From NCBI GenBank assembly GCA_902799185.1, contig CADBZO010000004.1, positions 485-64,484 on the forward strand: a stretch of DNA of 64,000 nt, written 5' to 3'. This DNA is from an uncultured Bacteroidales bacterium (GTDB lineage: Bacteria > Bacteroidota > Bacteroidia > Bacteroidales > Paludibacteraceae). Position numbers and translations under genes: made by a program. Below the pieces are notes generated by a model that was given only the letters and a program-made list of their open reading frames with translations, did no database searches and was not told the origin of the DNA. Below are positions 5,886 to 59,294 of the stretch, piece by piece. Each line of letters starts with the position of its first letter. Within the stretch, counting starts at the first letter, position 1.

Positions 5886-6020
5886 TTAAATCGGATCACC
5901 ATCGATGTCGGTGAAATTCAAGTCTAAGTTACCTTGAACGGAACCAACAGCGGCTTGGCACAGATAAGCAGTGCGAAATGCCATTGAGGTCATGTTGGGG
6001 ATAATATATTGCTTTTTCAT
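5886..6020 (-). CDS. Candidate small ORF (44 aa) between two giant secreted-protein genes
   Basis: Hand-translated as MKKQYIIPNMTSMAFRTAYLCQAAVGSVQGNLDLNFTDIDGDPI. ATG at 6018-6020, stop at 5886-5888. Below the ORF-track length cutoff. Confidence 0.3.
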   Translation of the reverse strand: MKKQYIIPNMTSMAFRTAYLCQAAVGSVQGNLDLNFTDIDGDPI

Positions 6021-6070
6021 ATTCGTAATTTTTTAGAGTTTCAGTATTCTTATTAGTTGGTATTCTGGAA

Positions 6071-9019
6071 TTATTCAATCATAACGCCCATTGCATTGTA
6101 ACGAACACCGTCACGGATGATGATGAGTTGACCGTTTTCGATAGTCTTGATTATTCCATTGTTCTCTAATTCTACCAGATTAATCTCGGTCGGTACTTTG
6201 TTCGGAGTAATAATATTTGCACGACGGATAGGAGCAGAATTCGCGCCACCATTAATCTGGAAGTAAGCACGGAAGCCCTTGAGTGTTCTGTCTTGTTGCG
6301 GATAAGCCAGTTGGTTATTTGCCATCAATAACAGTACTTGGTCTCCATTATGGAAATCTTTCTGAACGAATGTACCTTGGAAAGTTACGAAACCACCATT
6401 GGTATGATCAGCAGTTTCGCTTTCAATGGTTACATTTTCAAATAATGGGTTAACAATATCCGATGATGTCTTAATAAGAATCGGTGTCCCATTCCAGATA
6501 TCGCTGGCTGTGTTAAATTGCAGGTTAAGGATATCTCCGCTGAGGGTTGCACTGCCCAGCGTGTACAGCTCTACATCGTTACCGAAGATAGCTTTGCATT
6601 TTGCGCTGGAAAGTTTGAACGGCAAGCAGATCGTATTGTACATGCCACCTAAGATAGTGCGAGTCATTTGTACATCAACCGTGTTGTTTAGATCTGCAAT
6701 CCATCTGGTATTGTCGGTGTCTGTGTCTTTCATAACAACGCCTGCCGGAGCTACATACGGAGCAATAGTTACGCTGTGAAGAACACATACAGAATATTGC
6801 TGTTTATTAATGAGTTTGAGAGTGTAATCACCTGCTGCCGGAATGTTTAAATGTTGCGTGAGGCTATAGTTGTTATCCCATTTTGTATCCTCTCCCTCTT
6901 CTGCACTTCTCTTGAGTGTGTTGCCTTCATATAATTCAAAGCGTAAGGTATGTCCTCCGTTTGGCGCGTTAACTGTAATTACCATTTCGCCGGCTTCTGT
7001 AGCATGGAGATTCCATAGAGCATATTCAGTTTCGTTATCCTCATTCGCGTCATATTTGATATCACCGTTTGCAAGATGGGTCATTTTTAGTGTACCGCCA
7101 TCTTCTTTGAGCAGTTTTGCATCTGTGGCAAGTATCTCACCAGGAGCATTCACTATAGCACCACCTTCATAAGAAGCTGCGATATACTCAATACGTCCGT
7201 GAGAATAATTGGTAGTATCTTTGATAAATAATACATAATTGCCTATAGCCAGATTTTCTACATCCAAAGCAAATTTCAGCGGAGTATTGGATGAACCCTT
7301 CTGCACTTTTGATGCGATGTCACTGGTCTCAGTACTATTTCGTAAAATTAATTGGTAAGCATGTGCATTATCACTATTTGCACTAACGGCGAATTTGTAA
7401 TTACCAGCCTTTGCTATACTGATTTTCCATTTACCGTACTGGTCGCGTACATAACCTGAGTGACTGTCATCGGTAAAGCGTAATTCGCCGGCTTCATTAA
7501 CAAAAGCTCTTTCACTCTTTAATGCATCAATAGCTCTCAAAGTATCAGGAATAGCAATAGTTCTACCACCTTCGTAAGTTGCATCAATGAAGAGAACTCT
7601 ACTCTTTGCCCAGTTGTAGAGAGTGCGGACTTTTACGACATAATTACCTGCCGTCAGCTCATATTTACCAGTACTGATAGTTTGTTCTCCAGTACTCATA
7701 CTAGTGTTAGTATTAGAGATCAACTCAGAGGTCTCATCGCTATTGAGGAGTTTAATCTCAAATTTTTGGCTACCATCAGCGCGGAATACGTGAGCAGTGA
7801 AGTTGTAATAACCTGCCTTGGTAACTGAAACTTTCCATTTTGCCCATTCTTTGTCTTCGTAGTCGTAATCTCCACCAGGGTAAAGTTTAAAGGATATAGA
7901 GTCCGGAGCGTCTACAACAGCAGCAGAAATAACACCTGCCGTATCACTTACGATAGCATCAACGGCATTTAATCTGGCAGGGATAGCAATTGTTTGAATT
8001 GCAGTTTCCCAACGCGGGTCACCCCAAATAGCACCATTTTCACGTCTTGCTACAGAAGCATTGTGCATTCTAAAGTTATTATTGGCTGCATCCACAAATA
8101 GCGGATTTCCAGTGAAGTTACCGGAAAGTGCCGGCTTTCCACCACTCTGACGGTGTGCGTGTCTACCTGAATCATATGTTAAGTTGTACGTCAAACAGTT
8201 ACTGATAGTTCCGCCATAGCAACTTGTTGCGCGACGGTCATATGCCACAGGATGAGCAAAGATACAATTGGAAATAGTAACATCACTTATATTGAGTGGG
8301 CGAATCGCCGAATAATCCGAGTTAATTGTCGGATTGTTGTAGAACGTACAATGGTCAACAATTACTTTTACGGCATCCGATGTAGCATCATTGTACGGAT
8401 GAATATCTATAGTGCTTGTATAATTTGCTAACGCGTCCGAATTGGCAATCGTAGTATTAGTTACAGCAAGTTTATCGCACGGGTGTTTGCCTTCAATAGT
8501 TCCTTTTGGAAAATATACAGCATTCTTTTTGTTGTTATGCAAGAAGCAATCTTTAATAATAAGAGAATCTGTATGGGTACTTCCGGCTCCGTAGAAAACG
8601 TAATTCTTTATGCTGTATAACTCGCAGTCTTCTATAACAAGGCTGGTCTTCGAATCGTCATAAAAACGGAAATAATAGTCATAGGAGGTGCCTTGTACAC
8701 TACCATCAAATTTCAAACCTTTTATTTTGATGTTTGCGCCACTTTTAATTTGAGCATACGTGGTCATTTTAATTACAGGATTAGCACCCTCTGCAGCCAA
8801 GATGACTAAATTTTTGTCCAAATAAAGATAATCATCGTACTCATCATAAATACCATCTGCCAAAACAATGGTATCATAATTTTGCTCTGCTGCATACCAA
8901 ATTGCTAAACGCAAATTGTCGTGCGTTTCGAACGGTGTTGTAGGAGTAATGTTTTTCACCGCAGCATTCATCATCATTGAGAGGATCAATGCGGGAAGGA
9001 GTAAGAAAATTTTTCTCAT
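6071..9019 (-). CDS. Secreted beta-helix protein with three CBM6/35-like repeats (982 aa)
   Basis: Signal peptide present. The N-terminal roughly 330 aa are paralogous to 17944-19728 (DGIYDE...NLVILAAEGANPVIK...GDPRWE). Three internal modules of about 130 aa (about 6787-7987) contain KWKVSVTKAGYYNF / KWKISIAKAGNYKF. Confidence 0.8.
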   Translation of the reverse strand: MRKIFLLLPALILSMMMNAAVKNITPTTPFETHDNLRLAIWYAAEQNYDTIVLADGIYDEYDDYLYLDKNLVILAAEGANPVIKMTTYAQIKSGANIKIKGLKFDGSVQGTSYDYYFRFYDDSKTSLVIEDCELYSIKNYVFYGAGSTHTDSLIIKDCFLHNNKKNAVYFPKGTIEGKHPCDKLAVTNTTIANSDALANYTSTIDIHPYNDATSDAVKVIVDHCTFYNNPTINSDYSAIRPLNISDVTISNCIFAHPVAYDRRATSCYGGTISNCLTYNLTYDSGRHAHRQSGGKPALSGNFTGNPLFVDAANNNFRMHNASVARRENGAIWGDPRWETAIQTIAIPARLNAVDAIVSDTAGVISAAVVDAPDSISFKLYPGGDYDYEDKEWAKWKVSVTKAGYYNFTAHVFRADGSQKFEIKLLNSDETSELISNTNTSMSTGEQTISTGKYELTAGNYVVKVRTLYNWAKSRVLFIDATYEGGRTIAIPDTLRAIDALKSERAFVNEAGELRFTDDSHSGYVRDQYGKWKISIAKAGNYKFAVSANSDNAHAYQLILRNSTETSDIASKVQKGSSNTPLKFALDVENLAIGNYVLFIKDTTNYSHGRIEYIAASYEGGAIVNAPGEILATDAKLLKEDGGTLKMTHLANGDIKYDANEDNETEYALWNLHATEAGEMVITVNAPNGGHTLRFELYEGNTLKRSAEEGEDTKWDNNYSLTQHLNIPAAGDYTLKLINKQQYSVCVLHSVTIAPYVAPAGVVMKDTDTDNTRWIADLNNTVDVQMTRTILGGMYNTICLPFKLSSAKCKAIFGNDVELYTLGSATLSGDILNLQFNTASDIWNGTPILIKTSSDIVNPLFENVTIESETADHTNGGFVTFQGTFVQKDFHNGDQVLLLMANNQLAYPQQDRTLKGFRAYFQINGGANSAPIRRANIITPNKVPTEINLVELENNGIIKTIENGQLIIIRDGVRYNAMGVMIE

Positions 9020-33670: not shown

Positions 33671-34059
33671 GGGGCTATTTGGTTTTGACAGCAGGTAGAA
33701 TGGTTGTGTAAGCACGCCGGGCAATGAGGCAACGCCCGTTAATCTCGCTTCAAAATATAACTGGCAACACTTCTTATGCTCTCGCTGCCTGATCGAAGTA
33801 TAGTAGATCGGCTTATTCGGGCGCAAGGCGCTTGAACGGGACATCGCTCCAAGCCGAGTCTGTGGGCTGAAGGATTAAGCGGTGCAGAAATTCACAGAAT
33901 AGGTGTCGCAGGCTGCGATGCGGCGCCGAAAATCAAGCAGATAAGACGGTAGTTGGTGGCTTGGGTCTTGCTACCGGACGAAAATCAAGGCCAAGATAAG
34001 CGTGTAGAAAGCACAAGTATTCCTTGTTTGGACACGGGTTCGACTCCCGTTAGCTCCAC
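33671..34059 (+). ncRNA. ssrA: tmRNA (SsrA)
   Basis: 5' ggggctatttggttttgacagc pairs with 3' ...gggttcgactcccgttagctccac (tRNA-like T-arm and acceptor). Internal tag ORF ggc aac act tct tat gct ctc gct gcc tga = GNTSYALAA-stop at 33763-33792. Confidence 0.9.
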
Positions 34060-34276: not shown

Positions 34277-34349
34277 GGGGTATTAGCTCAGTTGGTAGAG
34301 CGCAACGTTCGCAATGTTGAGGTCAGGGGTTCGACTCCCCTATGCTCCA
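34277..34349 (+). tRNA. tRNA-Ala: tRNA-Ala (anticodon CGC)
   Basis: Hand-folded cloverleaf. Acceptor ggggtat/atgctcc with G3:U70, D arm gctcagttggtagagc, anticodon loop ttCGCaa, T arm ggggttcgactcccc. Confidence 0.9.
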
Positions 34350-34352
34350 CGA

Positions 34353-35275: not shown

Positions 35276-35400
35276 CGGCATCCGATGCCGGTTGTTTCGT
35301 CTTTGTTTATCATGCCTATTTTTATCTCCCCCTGCTTTCCTGCCCAGCCTTGCTTATCCCTGCTTATTCCTGCCTAAAATGGCCTATTCATGCAAATAAA

Positions 35401-35432
35401 TTTGCATATGTCCGAAAAATATTGTACCTTTG
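35401..35432 (+). promoter_or_regulatory. Promoter TTTG-N20-TACCTTTG (copy 3)
   Basis: tttgcatatgtccgaaaaatattgtacctttgcac, about 40 nt before the ATG at 35473. Confidence 0.6.
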
Positions 35433-35472
35433 CACCCGAATAGATAACCAGAAAGAAAAGAAAACTACTACA

Positions 35473-36834
35473 ATGAATAACGAGAACCAAAACATTGAGT
35501 ACAAAGAGTCTTGGCGCGATGAGTATGTCAAGTGGCTATGCGGCTTTGCCAATGCACAAGGCGGCAAACTCTATATCGGCATAAACGACAAAGGCGAAGT
35601 GTGCGGTGTGGAGAATGCTCACAAGTTGTCTGAAGATATTCCTAACAAAGTAGTTTCTTTCTTGGGTATTGTGGCCGATGTGAACGTTCTCCATAAAGAC
35701 GGAAAGGATTATATAGAAATCGACGTGGCTCCGAGCGATGTGCCCATCAGCTACAAGGGAAAGTACTATTTCCGTTCCGGCAGCACATTGCAGGAACTGA
35801 ATGGTGCAGCTCTGCAGAACTTTGTTCTCAGGAAGATGGGACGCTCGTGGGACGAGGTGACGAATGACCGTGCAGCACTCAAAGACATTGACCGTGAGGC
35901 GGTTGATTATTTTATCCGCAAAGGAATAGAGGCCGAGCGTGTTCCCGAGGACCTCCGCAAAGCCTCAACGGAAGAAGTGTTAACGAGCTTGGGCTTGATT
36001 GACGACAACGGCGGACTGACCAATGCGGCTGTTCTGCTTTTCGGCAAGAACCCTCAGCGCTATTATCCGAGTGCTGTCTTCAAGATAGGTCGTTTTGGCA
36101 TCGACGAAGCGGATCTGAGGTTTCAAGATGTAATTGAGGGCAATATCCTGCAAATGGCTGAGCGCGTGATGGATGTGCTCAAAGCCAAATATCTGATTTC
36201 TCCGGTTCGTTTCGAAGGAATGCAGCGATACGAAAAACTGGAACTACCCAAAGAGGCTTTACGAGAGATTCTTTATAATGCCCTTGCGCATAAGGATTAT
36301 ACAGGGCCGGACATCCAGATGCATGTCTATGACAGCAGTATTGAGATTTGGAACGAAGGAGAATTGCCGGAGGGTTATACTCAAGAGACTCTTTTTGCCA
36401 GCCACTCATCCAAACCGCGCAATCATAAGATTGCTAATGTCTTCTTCAAATCCGGTTTTATCGACACATGGGGACGAGGCTTCCAGAAGATCCGTGATGG
36501 TTTTGCGGCAGACGGGATCCCGATGCCCAAGGTCGAGAATTTCTGCGGCGGTGTACGAGTGACTATTGAACGAACCGTATTCGTAAAACTGTCGGTCAGT
36601 GGTCAGACAGGTGGTCAGACAGGTGGTCTGACAAGTGGTCAGACTGGTGGTCAGACGAGAGAACGTGTATATGAATTAATAAAGACTAATCCCTATATAA
36701 CACGAGATGAATTAAGTAAGGTTCTCGGAATATCTCCTTCTGCAATACAAAAGCACATTGACAAACTAAAAGAAGTTCGTATTAGAAGAATAGGAGGTGA
36801 TTTTGGTGGTCATTGGGAAATAATTGAAAAATAG
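35473..36834 (+). CDS. AlbA_2 (Schlafen-like) + HATPase_c_4-like + C-terminal wHTH protein
   Basis: NIEYKESW...GFANAQGGKLYIGINDKGEVCGV is the classic AlbA_2 N-terminus. The C-terminus RERVYELIKTNPYITRDELSKVLGISPSAIQKHI is HTH-like. Confidence 0.7.
   Translation: MNNENQNIEYKESWRDEYVKWLCGFANAQGGKLYIGINDKGEVCGVENAHKLSEDIPNKVVSFLGIVADVNVLHKDGKDYIEIDVAPSDVPISYKGKYYFRSGSTLQELNGAALQNFVLRKMGRSWDEVTNDRAALKDIDREAVDYFIRKGIEAERVPEDLRKASTEEVLTSLGLIDDNGGLTNAAVLLFGKNPQRYYPSAVFKIGRFGIDEADLRFQDVIEGNILQMAERVMDVLKAKYLISPVRFEGMQRYEKLELPKEALREILYNALAHKDYTGPDIQMHVYDSSIEIWNEGELPEGYTQETLFASHSSKPRNHKIANVFFKSGFIDTWGRGFQKIRDGFAADGIPMPKVENFCGGVRVTIERTVFVKLSVSGQTGGQTGGLTSGQTGGQTRERVYELIKTNPYITRDELSKVLGISPSAIQKHIDKLKEVRIRRIGGDFGGHWEIIEK
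36598..36657 (+). repeat. Coding 12-nt tandem repeat (GGTCAGACAGGT x5) encoding an SGQTGGQTGGLTSGQTGGQT linker
   Basis: Direct reading. Confidence 0.9.
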
Positions 36835-37804: not shown

Positions 37805-39352
37805 ATGGCAAAAAATACAACGACAAACACAGCCGACATCGGCTTTGAAAAACAAATCTGGGAGGCAGCTGACAAATTACGAGGCAATATAGATGCTTCC
37901 GAGTATAAATCCGTTATACTGGGACTCATCTTCCTGAAGTATCTTTCCGATCGCTTTGAGGAAGTATATAACAAGTTGCTGCTTGATCCATTGGCGGATT
38001 TTGAGGATAAAGACGAGTACTATGCCAATGAAGATGAAGAAGGCAATAGTGATCCTGTTTTTTATGTTCCCCAAGAAGCTCGTTGGTCAGTTATCTCGGA
38101 AGCTGCACATACACCGGAAATCGGAACGGTCATTGACAATGCCATGCGCCTGATAGAAAAAGAGAATGCCCGTCTAAAAGGTATTCTTCCTAAAAATTTT
38201 GCACGGCCGGAGTTGGATAAGCGCCGTTTGGGGGATGTGGTGGATATTTTCACTAATATCCGCATGAAGGAGCATGGCGATAGCAAGGATATTTTAGGGC
38301 GAACCTATGAATATTGCCTTTCCAAATTTGCAGAGGCAGAGGGTAAACTTGCAGGAGAATTCTATACCCCTGCCTGCATCGTCCGTACCTTGGTCGAGGT
38401 TTTGCAGCCTTTTAATGGGCGTGTTTATGATCCGGCTTGCGGTTCAGGCGGCATGTTTGTGCAATCTGCGCGTTTCATAAAGAACCATCAAGGTAATATA
38501 AAGAATATTTCTGTATTTGGTCAAGATAGCAACCCAACGACATGGAAGATGGCTCAAATGAATCTTGCCATTCGCGGAATAGAGGCTGATTTAGGGAAAT
38601 ACAATGCTGATACATTCTTTGATGACCAGCATCCTTTCTTAAAAGCAGATTATATAATGGCTAACCCTCCTTTCAATCTTAGTGATTGGGGTGCTGACAA
38701 ACTACAGGATGACCCAAGATGGAAATATGGAATTCCGCCTGCTGGAAATGCCAACTTCGCATGGCTACAGCATATGATTTATCACTTGTCTCCAGATGGG
38801 AAAATTGGTATGGTTTTAGCCAATGGTTCTTTATCTTCTCAAATAGGAGGTGAAGGGGATATACGTGCTAATATCGTCAAAGCAGATTTGATAGAGGGAA
38901 TAGTAGCATTACCATCTCAATTGTTTTACACTACAGGTATCCCTGTTTCATTATGGTTCCTTAACCGTCAGAAAAAACAAAAAGGAAAGGTTCTTTTTGT
39001 TGACGCCCGTAACTTAGGATCAATGGTAACTCGTAAACTGCGCGAACTTTCAGATGGGGAAGATGGAGATATCAACCGCATAGCCAAAACATTCCGAGAA
39101 TTTGAAGCTGGTACATTAGAAAATGAAAAAGGCTTCTGCGCTGTAGTAAATCTGGAGAGAATAGCAAAAGAAGATTACATTCTAACACCGGGACGCTATG
39201 TGGGAATTGCAGAGCAAAAGGATGATGGAATACCGTTTGAAGAGAAAATGGGAAAACTGACAAATGAACTTTCCGAATTGTTCGCTAAGTCACATGATTT
39301 AGAGGATGAGATACGGAAACAATTGGGCAATATCGGTTTTCCCTTTAAATAA
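37805..39352 (+). CDS. hsdM: Type I restriction-modification system methyltransferase subunit
   Basis: N-terminal HsdM_N-like LRGNIDASEYKSVILGLIFLKYLSD. AdoMet motif DPACGSGGMF. Catalytic NPPF. Confidence 0.9.
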   Translation: MAKNTTTNTADIGFEKQIWEAADKLRGNIDASEYKSVILGLIFLKYLSDRFEEVYNKLLLDPLADFEDKDEYYANEDEEGNSDPVFYVPQEARWSVISEAAHTPEIGTVIDNAMRLIEKENARLKGILPKNFARPELDKRRLGDVVDIFTNIRMKEHGDSKDILGRTYEYCLSKFAEAEGKLAGEFYTPACIVRTLVEVLQPFNGRVYDPACGSGGMFVQSARFIKNHQGNIKNISVFGQDSNPTTWKMAQMNLAIRGIEADLGKYNADTFFDDQHPFLKADYIMANPPFNLSDWGADKLQDDPRWKYGIPPAGNANFAWLQHMIYHLSPDGKIGMVLANGSLSSQIGGEGDIRANIVKADLIEGIVALPSQLFYTTGIPVSLWFLNRQKKQKGKVLFVDARNLGSMVTRKLRELSDGEDGDINRIAKTFREFEAGTLENEKGFCAVVNLERIAKEDYILTPGRYVGIAEQKDDGIPFEEKMGKLTNELSELFAKSHDLEDEIRKQLGNIGFPFK

Positions 39353-39378: not shown

Positions 39379-40404
39379 ATGATTTATTCACCCATAAAAA
39401 CATTGAAGAATATGAAAGAGAAACTAATTTTTGAAATCAGTAATGCAATGACGGATGTCTTGAGTGTTGAACAGATGGCGCAATTGAATGGTGTTCTTTT
39501 GCAGATCATTAGTCGCTATAATATAAGCGATGATTCCGCCTTTGTACAAGAAAACACAACATCCAACGACCGATTACTTGACATTTTCCTGTCAGCCAAA
39601 CAAGTGGAAGGATGCACAACTCCTACTATCCGTTACTATGGAGCAACTATCCGTCATTTCTTCCGTAAGATGCCAAAGAAAGTCACCAACTATACAACGG
39701 AAGACATCCGTGCCTATTTGGCGGTTTTCCAGCGGAAGCATAAATCAAGCAAAGTAACTATAGATAATATTCGCCGTATATTCTCTTCCTTTTTTGCTTG
39801 GTTGGAAGAAGAGGATTATATTATCAAAAGTCCGGTGCGACGCATCCATAAAGTAAAGACAGGAGCGCAAGTAAAAGAGGTGCTGACAGACGAGAATCTG
39901 GAAAACTTGAGAGACTCATGCGTCCAATTACGTGATATAGCCATGATAGACCTGCTTGCATCCACAGGAATGCGTGTTGGAGAGTTGGTAAAACTGAACA
40001 GGGAAGATATAAATTTTGCAGAGCGTGAATGTATAGTGTTTGGGAAGGGAAATAAAGAAAGAATTGTATATTTCAACGCCCGAGCCAAAATACATTTGCA
40101 ACAATATCTTACAACACGGCGTGATCGTAACAAAGCCTTATTTGTCTCGTTGGCACGTCCTCATTACCGTTTACAAATATCCGGTGTGGAAACTCGCTTA
40201 CGTAAAATCGGACAAGAGGCAAAAATAATGAGAGTGCATCCGCATAAATTTCGGCGTACATTGGCGACGATGGCAATAGACAAGGGAATGCCAGTTGAGC
40301 AGGTTCAGCGCTTATTAGGGCATGTCAAAATAGATACAACCATGCACTACGCTATGGTAAACCAGAATAATGTGAAACAATCACACCGCAAATATCTCAG
40401 TTAA
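39379..40404 (+). CDS. Tyrosine site-specific recombinase (XerC/D-like) embedded in the R-M locus
   Basis: STGMRVGELVKL (catalytic R box), HPHKFRRTLAT, and LLGHVKIDTTMHY (the H-x-x-x-x-x-Y end). An alternative ATG lies at 39412. Confidence 0.85.
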   Translation: MIYSPIKTLKNMKEKLIFEISNAMTDVLSVEQMAQLNGVLLQIISRYNISDDSAFVQENTTSNDRLLDIFLSAKQVEGCTTPTIRYYGATIRHFFRKMPKKVTNYTTEDIRAYLAVFQRKHKSSKVTIDNIRRIFSSFFAWLEEEDYIIKSPVRRIHKVKTGAQVKEVLTDENLENLRDSCVQLRDIAMIDLLASTGMRVGELVKLNREDINFAERECIVFGKGNKERIVYFNARAKIHLQQYLTTRRDRNKALFVSLARPHYRLQISGVETRLRKIGQEAKIMRVHPHKFRRTLATMAIDKGMPVEQVQRLLGHVKIDTTMHYAMVNQNNVKQSHRKYLS

Positions 40405-40407
40405 ATA

Positions 40408-41049
40408 ATGCGAACGCACCTTACATATCGCTTATGTTATCGACCTCGTAGAAAAAATACGCGGATAAATGATAATTTAGAACAACAAGCAATAGATCTT
40501 TTCGATTACATGTTTCCTTCTATAACAACTGGAAACTATAAAATTGGTGATTGGCTGAAACCAAAACGAGGAATAGGACTGTTAACAAAAGATACTATAT
40601 TGGGTGATGTGCCCGTTGTAGCAGGAGGATTGCGGCCTGCTGCATATCATAATAAGGCCAATACATTAAGTCCGGTCGTTACCATTTCTGCATCTGGAGC
40701 AAATGCAGGATATGTTGCATTATGGAATAAACCAGTTTGGTCTTCGGACTCATCCTATATAGATCCTTCACTAACACCTGATGTGTATTTTTGGTATGTG
40801 ATGTTAAAAAAACGACAAAAAGAAATATTTGATGCTCAAACAGGATCTGCACAACCTCATATATACCCGCAACACATTGCAGAACTGCCTATAAAGCAAT
40901 TGGAAAATGAGCAGATAATTAAATATACAGAACAAGTAACGCCATTATTTAAAATGATAGGCGATACAACAGAAGAAAATGTCAAATTAGCCCAACTTCG
41001 TGACACCTTATTACCCAAATTGATGTCAGGAGAACTCAAAATATCGTAA
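40408..41049 (+). pseudogene. hsdS: Half hsdS cassette (central conserved region + one TRD + C-terminal conserved region)
   Basis: Begins inside the central repeat (RINDNLEQQA) and ends LAQLRDTLLPKLMSGELKIS. It lacks the first target-recognition domain. Confidence 0.7.
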
Positions 41050-41086
41050 AACAGACTTATAAATTCTCATTTATGGAAGAGTGGAA
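40984..41086 (+). repeat. 103-bp direct repeat (hsdS 3' conserved region + spacer + MEEWK start), copy 1
   Basis: Identical to 42102-42204 except for one base. Confidence 0.9.
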
Positions 41087-42167
41087 GAAAGTAAAATTAG
41101 GCGAAATTACCAACATGAAGAATGGAAGGAAACGCCCACAAAGCAATGGTGTATTCCCTGTATATGGTGGCAATGGTATCATGGACTATACTGATTCTTA
41201 TAATGCAGAAAATGTAATCATAGTTGGACGTGTAGGTGCGTATTGTGGATGTGTCTATAAGTGTGAGAGTAAATGCTGGGTGTCGGATAATGCAATTTCG
41301 ATATCTGCAAAAGAAGTTGTTGATCCACTGTTCCTTTATTATCTCATGTCGACACTTGATTTACATCATCATCACATTGGCGGAGCACAACCTTTGATGA
41401 CACAAGATATTGTCGGTGATTTTGTAGTGTCAATACCTCCATTGTCAGTCCAGGATCAGATAGTGCAGATCCTTTCTTCTTTAGACGACAAAATCGAACT
41501 CAACCGACGGATAAATGATAATTTAGAACAACAAGCACAGGCATTATTTAAGTCATGGTTCGTAGATTTTGAGCCGTGGGGTGGCAAAATGCCAAACGAT
41601 TGGAAAGAGGGAACATTACTAGATATAGCAGATTATCTAAATGGACTTGCAATGCAGAAATATCCTTCAAAAGAAGGCTTTGTGTCTTTGCCAGTTCTTA
41701 AAATAAAGGAATTGAGACAAGGTTATTGTGACGACGCTAGTGACAGATGCACTTCTACTATATCTTCACAATACATCGTAAATGATGGGGACGTTATTTT
41801 TTCTTGGTCAGGAACATTGTTGGTTGATATTTGGTGCGGTGGGGTATGTGGATTAAATCAGCATTTGTATAAAGTAACCTCAAAAAGTTATCCGAAATGG
41901 TTTTATTTATATTGGACCATATCTCATTTAGAGAAATTTCGGCGGATAGCATCAGATAAAGCTGTTACGATGGGGCATATAAAACGAGGCGATTTGGAGA
42001 AAGCCAAAGTATTAATACCTCCTATTACCACCATAGTTACTCTTTCTAATCAAATTACTCCAATGATAGAAAATATTATTAATGTCAGGAAAGAAAATAC
42101 AAAATTAGCCCAACTTCGTGACACCTTATTACCCAAATTGATGTCAGGAGAACTTAAAATATCGTAA
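41073..42167 (+). CDS. hsdS: Type I R-M specificity subunit, complete (two TRDs)
   Basis: Layout is TRD1, central LDDKIELNRRINDNLEQQA, TRD2, then LAQLRDTLLPKLMSGELKIS. Confidence 0.85.
   Translation: MEEWKKVKLGEITNMKNGRKRPQSNGVFPVYGGNGIMDYTDSYNAENVIIVGRVGAYCGCVYKCESKCWVSDNAISISAKEVVDPLFLYYLMSTLDLHHHHIGGAQPLMTQDIVGDFVVSIPPLSVQDQIVQILSSLDDKIELNRRINDNLEQQAQALFKSWFVDFEPWGGKMPNDWKEGTLLDIADYLNGLAMQKYPSKEGFVSLPVLKIKELRQGYCDDASDRCTSTISSQYIVNDGDVIFSWSGTLLVDIWCGGVCGLNQHLYKVTSKSYPKWFYLYWTISHLEKFRRIASDKAVTMGHIKRGDLEKAKVLIPPITTIVTLSNQITPMIENIINVRKENTKLAQLRDTLLPKLMSGELKIS
41473..41537 (+). repeat. hsdS central conserved repeat
   Basis: A 52-bp stretch matches 42677-42729 with one mismatch. A 30-bp stretch is identical to 40462-40491. 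Confidence 0.9.
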
Positions 42168-42204
42168 AACAGACTTATAAATTCTCATTTATGGAAGAGT
42201 GGAA
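42102..42204 (+). repeat. 103-bp direct repeat, copy 2
   Basis: See 40984-41086. Confidence 0.9.
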
Positions 42205-42742
42205 AGAATACAGATTAGAAGAATTATGCAAAGGGAGAGGAACCTATGGTATAGGGGCTTCAGCAGTTCCTTATGATAAAAGTAAATATACTTATCTACG
42301 CATTACTGATATCAATGATGATGGAACTATAAATAAGAAAGGACTCTTATCTGTAGATTCACCCGAAGCATGTAATTATGTTCTTAGCAAAAACGATATT
42401 GTGTTTGCAAGAACAGGAAATAGCACAGGACGCTCTTATTTTTATGATGGAACAGATGGAGTATTAGTATATGCAGGGTTCTTAATCAAGTTTTCTTTGG
42501 ACGAAAAGAAAGTTAATCCGCGTATTTTGAAATATTACACGCATTCAAATAAATATTATGATTGGGTCAATTCTTTTAATACGGGTAGTACAAGAGGAAA
42601 CATAAATGCACAAACTTATGGAAATATGCCCATATTGCTACCTTCTAGAGCTATTCAAGATAAGATTGTATCTGTTCTTTCTTCTTTAGACAACAAAATC
42701 GAACTCAACCGACGGATAAATGATAATTTGATAGCTGCATAA
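42191..42742 (+). pseudogene. hsdS: Truncated hsdS cassette (one TRD + central conserved region)
   Basis: Starts MEEWKEY, ends LDNKIELNRRINDNLIAA-stop. There is no second TRD. Confidence 0.7.
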
Positions 42743-42743
42743 T

Positions 42744-43937
42744 ATGGAAGAGAATAATCATATGCAAGACGAAGAATACAAGGTTCAAACAGTTACTGAC
42801 TATTTGAACCAGATCACAGGTATTCGTAATAAGTTGATTGCAGAAGGTCGTTCGGATAACTTGTTTTTCCGAGGGCAAAGCAATTCAACGTGGGAAATAC
42901 GACCAAGTGTTTTCCGAGATTCTCTATTAAGTGTAGAAGATCTTATTATTCAACGAGCCATTGCACGTGCTCCCTATGAATTTGCAAATAGCAGCGCTAT
43001 AGAAGAATTAACAAAATTACAACATTATGGTTTACCTACGCGCTTGTTGGATGTTACAATGAATCCGTTAGTCGCGCTGTATTTTGCATGTGCGACTGAA
43101 AATAATAATAGCGCAACAGATGAGGAAATTCCCGATGGAGTCGTTTTCTATTGTACTGGATATGGAGAGTATAGTAATGCTGAGGATATAAAAATTCTTG
43201 CTTCGTTAGCTAAAATTAAAATTGATGGAAATATTACATTACAACAGCTTGCAGAAAATTTAGGAATTAAGGATCAAAAGAATGCTTTAAATTTTATTTC
43301 TCAATTACAAAGGCATGTGTTTGTAATGCCACATTACAGCAACAGCCGTATAATTAGTCAGAGTGGCGCATTTTTATTAACAGGAGCTATCAATGTTACA
43401 GAAAACGAGACGGATTTGTGGCAAAGTAAGGTGCAAAAAAGCGTTTGTAATTTGAACTCCATTTTTGCAGAACCCATACTGATTGACGGAAAAGAAAAGC
43501 AGAATATATTAAATGAGTTGGATTTCTTAAATATAAATGAAGGCTCTTTATTCCCAGAATTAGAACATCAAATGTCACACATCAAGCACACCGGTATTAA
43601 AGGTATTCAAGAATCAATTCCAGAATTCATTAAATTTGAAGTGTTAAAGCAAATGAACGTTGTCGAAGATACTGAAAAAGAAGACTTATATTTTACACCA
43701 TCAAAACAAGAAATACATAAAATTATTGAAAGATATATCAAAAACAAAGAACTTGAGGAACAGGTATACCAAATTATTGAAAGGAATACAATTTACCCTG
43801 ATTGGAATATAAAAGCTGCCGTATTGAGTTCAATGCAACTTTCTATAAGGAAACTCCTACAGAAGCAAGAAATAGGAATGGCAAAGGAAATAGCTCATAG
43901 TATTGTTAGAAAAGTAGCCGAAATGGATTATATATGA
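42744..43937 (+). CDS. FRG-domain protein
   Basis: LFFRGQSNSTWEIRPSVFR...LQHYGLPTRLLDVT matches the FRG-domain hallmark. The stop overlaps the hsdR start (ATGA). Confidence 0.7.
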   Translation: MEENNHMQDEEYKVQTVTDYLNQITGIRNKLIAEGRSDNLFFRGQSNSTWEIRPSVFRDSLLSVEDLIIQRAIARAPYEFANSSAIEELTKLQHYGLPTRLLDVTMNPLVALYFACATENNNSATDEEIPDGVVFYCTGYGEYSNAEDIKILASLAKIKIDGNITLQQLAENLGIKDQKNALNFISQLQRHVFVMPHYSNSRIISQSGAFLLTGAINVTENETDLWQSKVQKSVCNLNSIFAEPILIDGKEKQNILNELDFLNINEGSLFPELEHQMSHIKHTGIKGIQESIPEFIKFEVLKQMNVVEDTEKEDLYFTPSKQEIHKIIERYIKNKELEEQVYQIIERNTIYPDWNIKAAVLSSMQLSIRKLLQKQEIGMAKEIAHSIVRKVAEMDYI

Positions 43938-46900
43938 TGACATATAACGAAAATAACTACGAATATGCTGTGATAGCTTTATTTCAAGGAATGGGCTATC
44001 AACATCTCTATGGACCGGACATAGAGAGAGATTATTATGTTCCTTACTATGCAAAACAGTTGCAGCAAAGTTTGGAAACCATTAATCCCGATAAACCTTC
44101 TGCTGCAATACAGGAAGCAATTAGTAAGTTAAAGGATATTGATTCTCGTAATTTGGTTTTAGCCAATGAAACTTTTATGGATTATCTGCAACACGGAATA
44201 GAAGTTAGTTGGTTTGATGGTAAAGAACAAAAAAATGATCTGGTCTATTTAGTCGAATATGATCCGGAATTGATAAATAGAAACTCTTTTCTTGTTGTCA
44301 ATCAGTGGACCTTTGTAGAGAATGAAACGGAGAAACGCGCGGATATAGTGGTATTCATCAACGGACTACCTTTGGTCGTTATCGAACTAAAATCTCCATC
44401 AAGAGAAGAGACGGACGCTTCGGAGGCATATTTACAACTGCGGAATTATATAACCCAGATTCCATCATTATTCGTGTATAACGCGTTCTGCGTAATGAGC
44501 GACATGGCAATCTCCAAAGCCGGAACAATCACCAGTTCGGAAGACCGATACATGGAATGGAAAACGAAAACAGGAGAGTACGAAAGCAAAGCCCATGCCG
44601 ATTTTGATACTTTTTTTGAAGGAATGTTCCGCCGTGATTGGTTGCTTGACATCCTAAAGAATTTTATTTGTTTCTCTAAAGACGAAGCAGGCTCTGCCAA
44701 GATATTAGCGGGATACCATCAGTTCTTCGCCGTGCGTAAAGCCGTAGAGCGAACAAAATATGCCACACAGACAGAGAAGAAAGAGCATAAAGGGAAGATT
44801 GGCGTTTTCTGGCATACACAAGGTTCCGGCAAATCGTTATCTATGGTGTTCTATGCCCATCTACTACAGGCAGAGTTATCTCAACCAACCATTATTGTCA
44901 TTACCGACCGAAACGATTTGGATGATCAGTTGTATACGCAATTCTCCAAGTGTCAACATTTTCTTCGTCAAAAACCGGAGCAAGCCAGCAGCCGTGAACA
45001 TCTGAAACGGTTGCTTGCCGGGCGTGAAGCAAATGGCATCATCTTTACAACGATGCAGAAATTTGAAGAGTCTTCAGAAGCCTTGTCGATGAGACGCAAT
45101 ATAGTGGTCATGACAGACGAGGCTCATCGCGGGCAATATGGTTTTGAAGAGAAAGTGGATGCTAAAACCGGCAAGATATCTGTAGGTATTGCGAGAGTCA
45201 TCCATAATTCATTACCTAATGCTTCGTATATAGGCTTTACTGGTACTCCTATCTCCTTGAAGGATCGCGATACACAAGAGGTTTTCGGTGATTATATTGA
45301 TGTTTATGATATGACCCAGGCCGTTCTTGATAATGCGACCTGCCCGGTATTCTATGAATCAAGAGTTATCAACCTAAGATTGGACGAGAAAACCCTGAAA
45401 GCGATAGATGATGCATATGATCAATTAGAAGAAGAGGGCGCAACAACGGAACAGATAGAAAAGAGCAAAAAGGAAATGTCGCATCTGGAGGAACTATTGG
45501 GGGCTCCGGAAACGATAGACTCATTATGCCAGGATATAATACAACATTATGAAGAAAATCGTCAGTATGAGCTGACGGGAAAGGCAATGATTGTTGCCTA
45601 TTCGCGTCCAATAGCAATGAAGATTTATCACCGTATGTTGGAATTACGCCCCAATTGGACAGAAAAAGTTAAAGTGGTTATGACTTCGGGTAATCAGGAT
45701 CCCGAAGATTGGCATAAAATTATTGGCAACAGCCAATATAAGAAAGAACTCGCAAAACGCTTCAAAGACAATAGCGACCCGATGAAAATAGCCATTGTTG
45801 TTAATATGTGGTTGACGGGTTTTGATGTTCCTTCGTTGGCTACAATGTATGTATACAAACCGATGAAAGGGCATAATCTGATGCAGGCCATAGCACGAGT
45901 AAATCGTGTGTTCCAAGACAAATCAGGCGGTTTGGTGGTGGATTATATCGGTATTGCAAAGGCTCTCAAAGAAGCCATGCACGATTATACCAAACGCGAC
46001 AAAGACAATTATGGCGATACGGATATCAAAAAGACGGCATTGGTTAAATTTAGAGAGAAACTGGAGATATGCCGTGATATATTTCATGGGTTTGACTATA
46101 GTGATTTCCAAACAGGCACAGATGCAGATCGGGCTCTTATTATAAAGGGGGGTGTCAATTTTATGATGTGTCCCGAAAAGGGAGATGTGCTTCGAGTTTA
46201 CTTAAAAGAATCCTCTTTGTTGCATAGCGCGGTAACATTGTGCCGTAGCCTATTAGAGGAAGATGAACGATATGAAGCAGCCTTCTTTGAAACAGTGCGA
46301 ACATTGTTAAACCGTTTGAAAGGTAAAGGAAAAGTCTCCAAAAAGGAGATTAATGCCCACATAGGAGAACTCTTAAAACAAAGTGTTCATAGCGACGGAG
46401 TAGTAAATCTATTCTCTGATATAAAAGCGGAGTTCTCATTATTTGACGCTGCGTTCTTGGAAGAAATATCCAAGATGAAAGAAAAGAATATTGCCATTGA
46501 GTTGTTAAAACGGTTGTTGGCAGAAAGAGTACATCTGTATCAGAAAACCAATGTAATTCAGGCAGAGAAATTCTCGGATATGCTCAATGCATCACTCTCC
46601 AACTATTTGAAAGGGCTTTTGACGAACGAAGAAGTCATTCAAGAATTATTAAAACTGGCGAAGGAGATAGCAACATCCGAGGCACAGGGAAACGAATTGG
46701 GTTTGACGATGGAAGAAAAGGCATTTTATGATGCCCTGACACGTCCACAGGCCGTAAAAGATGTATATACCAATGAGCAACTGGTAGAAATGACGCATGA
46801 ATTGACTGACCAATTGCGTAAGAATAGAACCATAGATTGGCAAAAGAAAGAAACAGCACGCGCAGGTATGCGTAGAATGATAAAACGTCTTTTAAAGAAA

Positions 46901-47500
46901 TATAAATATCCGCCTGAGGAAGCTGACAATGCAATGGATATTGTTCTTCGGCAATGTGAACAATGGACTGATAATATTAGTCTATCAACCTCATCACAAC
47001 ATATTACACCTGATCAAAATCAAGAAAATCCCCAAATAAGACCTCTTTATCCTGACTATCGGGAAGGCAGCCTTCCGCTTTATTCCATCCGTGCAGCGTG
47101 TGGTTATTTTGGAGAAGGCGAGGAAGTGGAAGTGCAAGGATGGATTTCCGCAGAAGGTATCGGGCGGCTTAACGAAGATATGTTCGTTGTGCAAGCCGCA
47201 GGCAATTCCATGGAACCGCGTATCCATGATGGCGACTACTGCGTCTTTGAGCGATATAAAGGCGGCTCACGAAACGGGAAGATTGTCCTTGCGCAACACC
47301 GTGGATACTATGACGATGACAATGCCGGAGCCTTCTCCATCAAGGAGTATAATAGTACCAAATCTGCAGATGAGTACGGCAATTGGCAGCATGAGTCTAT
47401 AGAACTCCGTCCGCTAAATCCTGCCTATAATCCCATCGTTCTCACGCCGGATGATATAGAAGATTTCCGCATCATCGGAGAGTTTGTAGCAACACTTTGA
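43934..47500 (+). CDS. hsdR: Type I restriction enzyme R subunit with a C-terminal S24/LexA-like peptidase domain (1188 aa)
   Basis: N-terminal nuclease region (ADIVVFINGLPLVVIELK). Helicase motifs HTQGSGKS, DEAH and TGTP. A DUF3387-like tail. Then GNSMEPRIHDGDYCVF (47201-) ... AFSIKEY ... LRPLNPAYNPIVL ... IIGEFVATL. Confidence 0.85.
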   Translation: MMTYNENNYEYAVIALFQGMGYQHLYGPDIERDYYVPYYAKQLQQSLETINPDKPSAAIQEAISKLKDIDSRNLVLANETFMDYLQHGIEVSWFDGKEQKNDLVYLVEYDPELINRNSFLVVNQWTFVENETEKRADIVVFINGLPLVVIELKSPSREETDASEAYLQLRNYITQIPSLFVYNAFCVMSDMAISKAGTITSSEDRYMEWKTKTGEYESKAHADFDTFFEGMFRRDWLLDILKNFICFSKDEAGSAKILAGYHQFFAVRKAVERTKYATQTEKKEHKGKIGVFWHTQGSGKSLSMVFYAHLLQAELSQPTIIVITDRNDLDDQLYTQFSKCQHFLRQKPEQASSREHLKRLLAGREANGIIFTTMQKFEESSEALSMRRNIVVMTDEAHRGQYGFEEKVDAKTGKISVGIARVIHNSLPNASYIGFTGTPISLKDRDTQEVFGDYIDVYDMTQAVLDNATCPVFYESRVINLRLDEKTLKAIDDAYDQLEEEGATTEQIEKSKKEMSHLEELLGAPETIDSLCQDIIQHYEENRQYELTGKAMIVAYSRPIAMKIYHRMLELRPNWTEKVKVVMTSGNQDPEDWHKIIGNSQYKKELAKRFKDNSDPMKIAIVVNMWLTGFDVPSLATMYVYKPMKGHNLMQAIARVNRVFQDKSGGLVVDYIGIAKALKEAMHDYTKRDKDNYGDTDIKKTALVKFREKLEICRDIFHGFDYSDFQTGTDADRALIIKGGVNFMMCPEKGDVLRVYLKESSLLHSAVTLCRSLLEEDERYEAAFFETVRTLLNRLKGKGKVSKKEINAHIGELLKQSVHSDGVVNLFSDIKAEFSLFDAAFLEEISKMKEKNIAIELLKRLLAERVHLYQKTNVIQAEKFSDMLNASLSNYLKGLLTNEEVIQELLKLAKEIATSEAQGNELGLTMEEKAFYDALTRPQAVKDVYTNEQLVEMTHELTDQLRKNRTIDWQKKETARAGMRRMIKRLLKKYKYPPEEADNAMDIVLRQCEQWTDNISLSTSSQHITPDQNQENPQIRPLYPDYREGSLPLYSIRAACGYFGEGEEVEVQGWISAEGIGRLNEDMFVVQAAGNSMEPRIHDGDYCVFERYKGGSRNGKIVLAQHRGYYDDDNAGAFSIKEYNSTKSADEYGNWQHESIELRPLNPAYNPIVLTPDDIEDFRIIGEFVATL

Positions 47501-48765: not shown

Positions 48766-48803
48766 TCTCCCCCTCTCTTGAGGAGAGGGACGGGGTGAGG
48801 TTA
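48766..48803. repeat. REP-like palindromic unit (CCCTCTC..GGAGAGGG..CGGGGTGAGG)
   Basis: Reverse-orientation copy of unit 1 of the element inserted in mutA (62181-62215). Confidence 0.7.
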
Positions 48804-49099
48804 TTACTCTTGCATCAGCAGTTGCATAACCACTTTCGCAGAGTATGCAACCGGGGTGCCGGGGCCGAAGATGGCGGCAACGCCGGCTTTGTAGAGGAAG
48901 TCATAGTCCTGCGCGGGGATGACACCACCGGCGGTGACCATGATATCCGGACGGCCGAGTTTCTTGAGCTCCTCGATGACCTGCGGGATGAGGGTCTTGT
49001 GACCTGCCGCGAGGCTGGAGACACCCAGTACATGGACGTCGTTCTCCACTGCCTGTTTAGCTGCCTCTGCCGGAGTCTGGAACAACGGTCCCATATCGA
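48804..49099 (-). pseudogene. mutB: Displaced 3' fragment of methylmalonyl-CoA mutase large subunit (B12-binding domain C-terminus)
   Basis: Encodes the same 96 residues (...[14 protein letters not shown]...VVMQLLMQE) as 58821-59116. My hand alignment gives about 18 synonymous differences. Homology stops abruptly at 49099. Confidence 0.85.
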
Positions 49100-58505: not shown

Positions 58506-58820
58506 CCGATAGACCGATAGATCGGGTTATCGAGAGATCGAAGGAAAAGACGAACCGGCATCAAATGCCGGGCTAATTGACGAAGAAAAACGCGCATGGA
58601 TACGCGGAGCATAAACGCTACATCCGACCGATGGTAATTATAAATACGCGAAGCGTTGCTTTTCCCCCTTTAAATTTTTCGCGAAGCGAGTAAATAAAAT
58701 AATAAAGAGCAAGAAGAAGATATATTGTGCAAAGAGGGGTATTATTCTGAGCGAGGAGAGAGTATAAAAAAAGCGGGCAACTATGAAATAGAAGCCCGCC
58801 TTTCGTTAGCAAGAGATGGA

Positions 58821-59294
58821 TCATTCCTGCATCAATAATTGCATAACCACTTTGGCGGAGTAGGCAACCGGGGTGCCGGGGCCAAAGATGGCGGCAACAC
58901 CGGCTTTGTAGAGGAAGTCATAGTCCTGCGCGGGGATGACACCACCAGCGGTGACCATGATATCCGGACGGCCGAGTTTCTTGAGCTCCTCGATGACCTG
59001 CGGGATGAGGGTCTTGTGACCTGCCGCAAGAGAGGAGACACCCAGTACATGGACATCGTTCTCCACCGCCTGTTTAGCTGCCTCTGCCGGAGTCTGGAAC
59101 AACGGTCCCATATCGACATCAAAGCCGCAATCGGCATAACCGGTGGCTACCACTTTGGCGCCACGATCATGGCCATCCTGTCCCATCTTGGCAATCATGA
59201 TACGGGGTTGACGACCTTCTTTCTTGGCAAACTCTGCCGTGAGACGACAAGCTTCCTGGAAGTTATCGTCGTTCTTAGTACCTGAAGCGTACAC
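58821..59294 (-). CDS. mutB: Methylmalonyl-CoA mutase large subunit, B12-binding domain portion (separate frame)
   Basis: [18 protein letters not shown] (DxHxxG B12 motif) ...GVSSLAAGH... The frame stays open upstream to 59336 and reads [26 protein letters not shown]. Confidence 0.85.

Follow-up and report, generated by a model that had tools for sequence, protein, structure and literature searches.

The 64,000-nucleotide stretch of DNA analysed here (hereafter the window; positions 485 to 64,484 of contig CADBZO010000004.1, from an uncultured Bacteroidales bacterium of the Paludibacteraceae) carries a restriction-modification locus of type I in which a tyrosine recombinase gene stands beside an array of complete and half specificity (hsdS) genes. 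All of these genes lie on the + strand, in the order hsdM, tyrosine recombinase, 3' half hsdS (piece A), complete hsdS (B), 5' half hsdS (piece C), a gene with an FRG domain and hsdR (Table 1), and Pfam and NCBIfam models matched each of hsdM, hsdS and hsdR. The window is identical to a rumen metagenome scaffold in the European Nucleotide Archive (STEW19-1, SAMEA5383993, scaffold_92). We write the array as L-m1-a-T1-b'-m2-b-T2-c'-m3-R, where m is a midpoint repeat in the central conserved region of hsdS and T a tail-end repeat that lies over a stop codon, the spacer and the next start. In this notation a and b are C-terminal target recognition domains (TRDs; TRD2a and TRD2b), b' and c' are N-terminal ones (TRD1b and TRD1c), and L and R denote flanking sequence that has no relation to hsdS. 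Loci and proteins used for comparison carry the labels L and P followed by a number.

Table 1. Genes and repeats of the type I locus, in window coordinates.
Feature	Position	Strand	Composition or matches
hsdM, type I methyltransferase subunit	37805..39352	+	Pfam N6_Mtase 5e-108, HsdM_N 2e-28
Tyrosine recombinase, TvrR/PsrA family (by similarity)	39412..40404 (reading frame open from 39379)	+	Phage_integrase 4e-35, SAM_4
Piece A, 3' half hsdS, 213 aa	40408..41049	+	18-aa leader, central-region tail from core onward, TRD2a, C-terminal conserved region
Midpoint repeat m1 (L site)	40462..40479	+	Non-hsdS left flank, then core TAAATGATAATTTA (40466-40479)
Tail-end repeat T1	40984..41086	+	3' end of C-terminal region, stop, spacer, next start; core TAAATTCTCATTTA at 41060-41073
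Complete hsdS B, 364 aa	41073..42167	+	TRD1b, central region, TRD2b, C-terminal region; Methylase_S 8e-32, two stretches
Midpoint repeat m2 (full site)	41490..41537	+	Core at 41512-41525
Tail-end repeat T2	42102..42204	+	Core at 42178-42191
Piece C, 5' half hsdS, 183 aa	42191..42742	+	TRD1c and central region up to core; Methylase_S 2e-17
Midpoint repeat m3 (R site)	42695..42730	+	Core TAAATGATAATTTG, then unrelated right flank
FRG-domain gene, between array and hsdR	42762..43937 (reading frame open from 42744)	+	Pfam FRG 5e-19
hsdR with C-terminal Peptidase_S24 (LexA/UmuD-like) domain	43934..47500	+	HSDR_N, SWI2_SNF2, T1RH-like_C, TIGR00348 7e-171

The two outer hsdS pieces are incomplete in complementary ways. 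Piece A, whose ATG lies 4 nt past the recombinase stop codon, matches the Pfam Methylase_S model weakly (E 0.0075) and covers only positions 23-42 of our central-region profile before its match to the C-terminal-region profile begins. Piece C covers only central-region positions 1-30, with its stop codon 13 nt past the core. Homology to hsdS starts in piece A, and ends in piece C, exactly at a 17-mer core, CGGATAAATGATAATTT, which is all that the three central copies have in common (40462, 41508 and 42713). The exact protein product of the complete gene, hsdS B, is also present in a public assembly.

The central copies in B and C are 86% identical over 74 nt, including an exact match of 35 nt (41490-41524 = 42695-42729), while those in A and B share an exact 30 nt (40462-40491 = 41508-41537). 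The tail-end repeats T1 and T2 agree over 103 nt with one mismatch (41037 C / 42155 T), and a weaker similarity extends to 133 nt. By dinucleotide-preserving shuffling, the number of matches to be expected for these repeat patterns was 0.00 to 0.01, and no minus-strand copy of either repeat class was found in the whole 64-kb window; all of the repeats are direct. The original prediction for this locus, made from the DNA letters, had described hsdM, a recombinase and three same-strand hsdS pieces, a 103-bp repeat occurring twice with one mismatch, a central repeat occurring three times, and a direct orientation throughout, and each of these points is borne out by the open reading frames, the Pfam matches and the repeat comparisons given above.

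Each repeat class is built around a 14-nt core, TAAAT-GATA-ATTTA at the midpoint and TAAAT-TCTC-ATTTA at the tail, with identical inverted arms and a differing centre. The tail core is placed in the spacer and shares bases with the next ATG. The 64 kb contain the pattern TAAATNNNNATTTA at four places (0.15 expected), namely m1, T1, m2 and T2; the core of m3 departs from the pattern in its last base. Because the arms are palindromic, it is the centre that sets the orientation of a site. We asked whether the tail spacer, which matches the midpoint core in inverted orientation, could be a hidden inversion site, and rejected this, as the centres GATA and TCTC differ.

The recombinase gene probably starts at 39412, because public assemblies call it there: the resulting 330-aa form is the gene called in four public contigs, and the 341-aa open reading frame from 39379 gave no match in the exact-protein look-up. 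The sequence contains GMRVGEL, GKGNKER, HPHKFRRT and GH...MHY, which we take to be tyrosine recombinase motifs. It is 64.6% identical over 280 aa to TvrR, the recombinase of the pneumococcal tvr loci, which we retrieved through a published primer sequence, and 62% identical to an inverting-type streptococcal homologue (L058). Its score against the NCBIfam model NF040815 is 240.9 bits with a cut-off of 220, and TvrR passes the same model. Judged by these matches, the recombinase is a member of the TvrR family.

To place the locus among its relatives, one genome per species was searched with the recombinase, which returned 564 relatives, of which the best 80 loci were kept. Among these best 80 of 564, every locus whose recombinase is at least 69% identical to that of the window has hsdM, the recombinase, the hsdS pieces and hsdR in this order on one strand, whereas at or below 65% identity most loci holding hsdS pieces have some of them on the opposite strand. 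The 33 all-direct loci that were scored form one clade in a neighbour-joining tree, apart from the TvrR and inverting clades, and opposite-strand sites or half genes were seen neither in the window nor in these 33 clade members. Conserved-region profiles reveal a common anatomy of recombinase, 3' half, zero to two complete genes and 5' half, in which the 3' half starts at central-region position 23-27 and the 5' half ends at position 30. Overall, the layout with a recombinase outside the array, bracketing half genes and no toxin-antitoxin pair is found in ~30 species-level Bacteroidales genomes from gut, oral and rumen habitats, with members including Phocaeicola vulgatus ATCC 8482, Bacteroides cellulosilyticus DSM 14838, Segatella maculosa DSM 19339, Prevotella histicola T05-04 and Dysgonomonas sp. 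511.

The sites themselves are conserved in a characteristic manner. Across ~29 related loci, the homology of the end pieces begins or stops at the core. The centre of the midpoint core varies between these loci (GATA, CATA, CGCA, GACA), yet nearly all of them have one and the same centre at their own L, full and R sites, the R-site core of L015 being degenerate. In tyrosine recombinases, a centre that has to match between partners yet is otherwise free to vary is a hallmark of the strand-exchange overlap region, and we read the core centre as a probable overlap region. The tail core, in the form TAAAT-TC(T/C)C-ATTTA-TG, is kept clade-wide at hsdS-hsdS junctions, non-coding bases included.

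Two further features were observed in the related arrays. Some arrays have accessory genes embedded in them, namely a gene for a Fic-domain protein with a C-terminal winged-helix (HTH) domain and a YhcG/DUF1016 nuclease gene (L020:8759-9847, in P. vulgatus ATCC 8482, and L014:6434-7534); the embedded Fic gene recalls TvrT, the Doc-family toxin of pneumococcal tvr. In addition, the complete hsdS of some relatives has two direct cores in its central region, ~130-140 nt apart (L018:9643-9800, L026:3832-3995, protein P0007), which look like an R-type followed by an L-type site and add an in-frame insertion of ~20 aa. Such a double core may represent a scar left by recombination, or else a docking site.

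Exact-protein look-ups led us to variants of the window locus in other rumen samples. One of them, on a 91.7-kb contig (L113/L118), has no mismatch to the window across 5.4 kb upstream and only repeat-signature differences over 7.8 kb downstream, and it is without the complete hsdS B, which is missing exactly between T1 and T2, giving L-m-a-T-c'-m-R. Two loci from two other samples (L116 and L117) contain the junctions b-T-b' and b'-m-R adjoining the FRG gene and are unlike the window at just 1-2 other positions over the aligned lengths. Their junctions bring together, within 55 nt, marker combinations that are absent from the window arrangement, in one of which the R flank follows a TRD1b-type G at 41487, while in the other a TRD2b end is joined via the tail-repeat marker to TRD1b. 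To derive b-T-b'-m-R from the window, exchange is needed both at T and at m. In related strains, close relatives of c' and a form one complete hsdS, c'a (L123, with 99% and 93% identity, and L126, a Joint Genome Institute contig, with 98% and 91%). P0002, P0009 and P0011 combine TRD2b with other N-terminal TRDs, and TRD1b forms the terminal half in L121 and L122. A single metagenome scan for the L flank plus core gave only two contigs, both from more distant strains, and no empty L-core-R site was seen.

Based on the sites and their conservation, the homology of the recombinase and the natural rearranged variants, all of which are observed, we suggest that the locus works by tvr-like excision and reintegration at two classes of direct repeat. 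We hold this to be the best-supported reading, with a probability of about 0.68. The adjacent tyrosine recombinase would bind the arms common to both core classes, and strands would be exchanged only between sites sharing the 4-nt centre, m with m and T with T. Given the direct orientation of every site, a circle with part of the array would be excised at each exchange, and reinsertion of the circle at another site of its class would re-pair N-terminal and C-terminal TRDs. The differing centres of m and T would thereby prevent recombination between the two classes and keep the N- and C-terminal modules in register. The circular intermediates, the dependence on the recombinase, the reversibility of the exchange and the methylation motifs are the parts of this model that we infer.

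This model makes specific predictions. Combining two N-terminal with two C-terminal TRDs would allow for four complete alleles (b'b, c'a, b'a and c'b), besides deleted forms without a complete hsdS, and the bipartite DNA motif to which HsdM and HsdR are directed would differ from allele to allele. Exchange of L with R would excise a circle with two complete genes (b'b and c'a) and leave an empty L-core-R site. The predicted junction sequences are TTAGACAACAAAATCGAACTCAACCGACGGATAAATGATAATTTAGAACAACAAGCAATAGATC for c'-m-a, CGTAGAAAAAATACGCGGATAAATGATAATTTAGAACAACAAGCACAGGCATT for L-m-b and TTAGACGACAAAATCGAACTCAACCGACGGATAAATGATAATTTGATAGCTGCATAA for b'-m-R, and further junctions, b-T-b' and a-T-c', are expected at the tail-end repeats.

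Excision and reintegration have a precedent. In pneumococcal tvr (SpnIV), Kwun et al. (2018) described hsd genes that are all on one strand, with midpoint repeats of ~18 bp and tail-end repeats of ~70 bp that share a core of ~11 bp in one orientation, and they demonstrated experimentally that, driven by TvrR, circles are excised and inserted again at another repeat, by which TRD segments are shuffled (PMC6265443). Huang et al. (2020) assigned TvrR to one of six recombinase clades and, from one direct-repeat Sphaerochaeta locus, inferred excision-reintegration for a small proportion of recombinase-linked loci (PMC7672463). These studies contradict the premise of the original prediction that known phase-variable type I systems shuffle by inversion. 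Its expectation that recombination here deletes, circularises or duplicates cassettes, and does not invert them, is supported by the natural variants with such junctions. As for the different switching logic that it proposed, the difference from ivr, Mycoplasma pulmonis and Bacteroides fragilis stands, but the novelty does not, since tvr precedes it. We therefore regard the switching logic as one that is probably already known from tvr, while the Bacteroidales gene layout was not found in the literature searched. No description of direct-repeat hsdS arrays was found in Atack 2020, Ben-Assa 2020 or a 2025 gut-microbiome preprint, which is no proof that none exists.

The likeness to tvr extends to several features. 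In both, the hsd genes and TRD segments are on one strand, and short midpoint and longer tail-end direct repeats share a core, AAAT-N4-ATTT (in the tvr locus L093, the midpoint core is CAAAT-CCCG-ATTTA and the tail repeat contains CAAAT-CACA-ATTT). Both have homologous tyrosine recombinases, that of the window belonging to a separate Bacteroidales clade in the tree, and both have rearranged and deleted natural forms, which for the window locus come from different samples and not from one clonal culture. The two differ in where the recombinase lies. The tvr array contains its recombinase and a phd-doc toxin-antitoxin pair (tvrAT), which are excised with the circle, whereas in the window the recombinase follows hsdM, upstream of the first repeat, and the array has no toxin-antitoxin gene. 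The window recombinase is outside every excisable segment and would therefore never be lost with a circle. Furthermore, the first TRD segment after hsdM is fixed in tvr and forms a complete gene, whereas in the window a 3' half opens the array and a 5' half closes it, at the hybrid sites L and R. A further difference is the hsdS family; our central and C-terminal profiles give no match to tvr hsdS, and for this reason the comparison with tvr rests on the recombinase and on repeats that were found directly. With four tvr features present and one, the placement of the recombinase and toxin-antitoxin genes, not shared, we provisionally class the locus as working like tvr.

Inverting shufflons, such as those of S. 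pneumoniae (ivr/SpnD39III, with PsrA/CreX), S. suis, B. fragilis and M. pulmonis, are also related to the locus, in that the recombinase family is common to the ivr-like relatives. Inverting relatives moreover have the same recombination site in the central region, ATAAAT-N3/4-ATTTAG, and half genes truncated at the same codon. However, their sites and half genes are on opposite strands and are exchanged by inversion, whereas in the window all are on the + strand. Integron cassette arrays likewise have modules in the same orientation between recombination sites beside a tyrosine recombinase, and the excision and reinsertion of circles that we propose is similar; their sites are folded attC and their modules promoterless genes, whereas the window has double-stranded cores with palindromic arms and modules that are gene halves. 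An integron was considered as a candidate and rejected, as the recombinase scored 73.9 bits with TIGR02249 (cut-off 265) and 36.6 with NF011946 (cut-off 435), and the sites are short cores within coding sequence.

It is also conceivable, if rather improbable, that the variants arose through general homologous recombination only, by unequal crossover or gene conversion between conserved hsdS regions together with horizontal exchange, and that the recombinase is irrelevant to the direct repeats or a relic of an inverting ancestor. Lactococcal hsdS plasmids are known to recombine by homologous recombination. The best-documented variant, the L113 deletion, falls between 103-bp repeats that RecA could use, the recombinant tail repeats of L116 and L117 differ at the single marker position, and Kwun et al. 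observed TvrR-independent excision at long repeats (PMC6265443). Homologous recombination does not readily explain, however, why the L and R end sites, which share only ~12-17 nt with the full sites, are at the same nucleotide position in ~29 loci, nor why the centres of end and full sites co-vary within each locus. The observed b'-m-R junction relied on no more than 35 identical nt, the tail core is kept, with its non-coding bases, where the coding sequences have diverged, and the recombinase is intact and conserved in a monophyletic clade, always with the all-direct layout. A different alternative, to which we give little credence, is a one-way ON/OFF switch or decay, in which there is only deletion, the circles are lost, the half genes are dead remnants and no reversible switching occurs. 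The circles would indeed have no replication or addiction function, and halves-only forms are found in L113 and in reference genomes (L006, L012, L015, L020, which is P. vulgatus ATCC 8482, L037 and L127). Yet the b-T-b'-m-R junctions of L116 and L117 require more than deletion, the half-complete-half layout is maintained with intact sites and open reading frames over ~29 diverged loci, which does not resemble decay, and the terminal halves of the window exist elsewhere as one complete gene.

That the variants are metagenome assembly artefacts at the repeats of a static locus seems to us highly unlikely, even though some contigs end at or inside repeats (L003 in T1, L115 in m3, and L116, which starts in m2), as is typical of unresolved repeats. 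L113 was assembled at k=141, and a single 141-mer covers its a-T-c' junction, including the whole 103-nt repeat. Because of this k-mer and of the non-window marker combinations within 55 nt in L116 and L117, we do not think that the junctions of these three loci are artefacts; in addition, the same junctions were obtained from two independent samples. It should be noted that several points weigh against excision-reintegration as well. The variants come from different samples and could be fixed differences between very close strains, the deletion at the 103-bp repeat could be RecA-mediated, and in tvr itself the recombination at tail repeats is partly TvrR-independent (PMC6265443). L116 has a T1-type base upstream of the tail core, which is at odds with a simple crossover at the core if the base is not a strain polymorphism, and it starts with TRD1b-type markers upstream of m-b; the L116 markers suggest a duplication or a mixed-population assembly path and not a clean translocation. 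Finally, since the recombinase is outside the excisable segments and there is no toxin-antitoxin pair, the retention of circles is unaccounted for.

Studies that survey gut bacteria for epigenetic phase variation, here Huang 2020, Atack 2020 and a gut-microbiome preprint of 2025, mostly look for inverted repeats, and work of this kind would miss this direct-repeat class of loci. If these arrays switch like tvr, they would constitute a second, overlooked route, based on excision, to heterogeneity of methylomes and restriction barriers in gut, oral and rumen communities. Identical arms combined with a class-specific 4-nt centre would also provide a simple rule by which one recombinase could keep modules in register.

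The half genes may have a function of their own. The reading frame of the 3' half is open from the recombinase stop codon in 29/29 related loci, and in 27 of the 29 an ATG lies between -3 and +7 nt from that stop, whereas the other two frames, taken as a control, are open in 24/58 cases. Halves-only arrays recur, for instance in L113 and, among reference genomes, in P. vulgatus ATCC 8482. In EcoDXXI, co-expressed N- and C-truncated S subunits restore wild-type specificity (PMC3874165). We tentatively speculate, while considering it doubtful, that the terminal halves are not silent donor cassettes but are translated and assemble non-covalently as a split HsdS, perhaps also as homodimers. In the window, such a split HsdS may consist of TRD1c with the central helix and TRD2a with the C-terminal helix. 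Were this the case, several specificities would be expressed at once and each rearrangement would alter the whole set of motifs, and the halves-only arrays of L113 and P. vulgatus ATCC 8482 would stay active restriction systems and would not be OFF.

The remaining parts of the locus and its surroundings offer a number of minor observations. The FRG gene overlaps the start of hsdR, and in related strains its slot (in L119, positions 5992-7023) is taken by a PIN_12 gene (L119, L121) plus an open reading frame without a family match. The Peptidase_S24 domain lies at HsdR residues 1053-1185 (Pfam 8e-12), and the same fusion is present in the relatives L113 and L119. A sigma-70 promoter scan returned 42 promoter-like sites where 34.6 were expected, using a model that does not cover Bacteroidetes promoters, and a terminator scan reported no attenuator-like hairpin between hsdM and the recombinase gene. 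Upstream, at window positions 33671-34059 and 34277-34350, are the genes for a transfer-messenger RNA (tmRNA), whose tag peptide is GNTSYALAA, and for tRNA-Ala(CGC). Just downstream of these follows a run of defence-type genes, comprising a Schlafen/AlbA_2 gene with HATPase_c_4, DUF2971, the type I system and RhuM, and this run could be an island inserted beside the tmRNA gene. Downstream of the RhuM gene, a 297-nt direct repeat with 94% identity (48803-49099 and 58820-59116) flanks a segment of 10 kb; its copies may delimit an inserted element or stem from a gene end that was duplicated. Lastly, a 12-nt tandem repeat (GGTGGTCAGACA-like, 4-5 copies, window positions 36598-36656) encodes a GQTG repeat within the Schlafen/AlbA_2-HATPase_c_4 gene (35350-36834).

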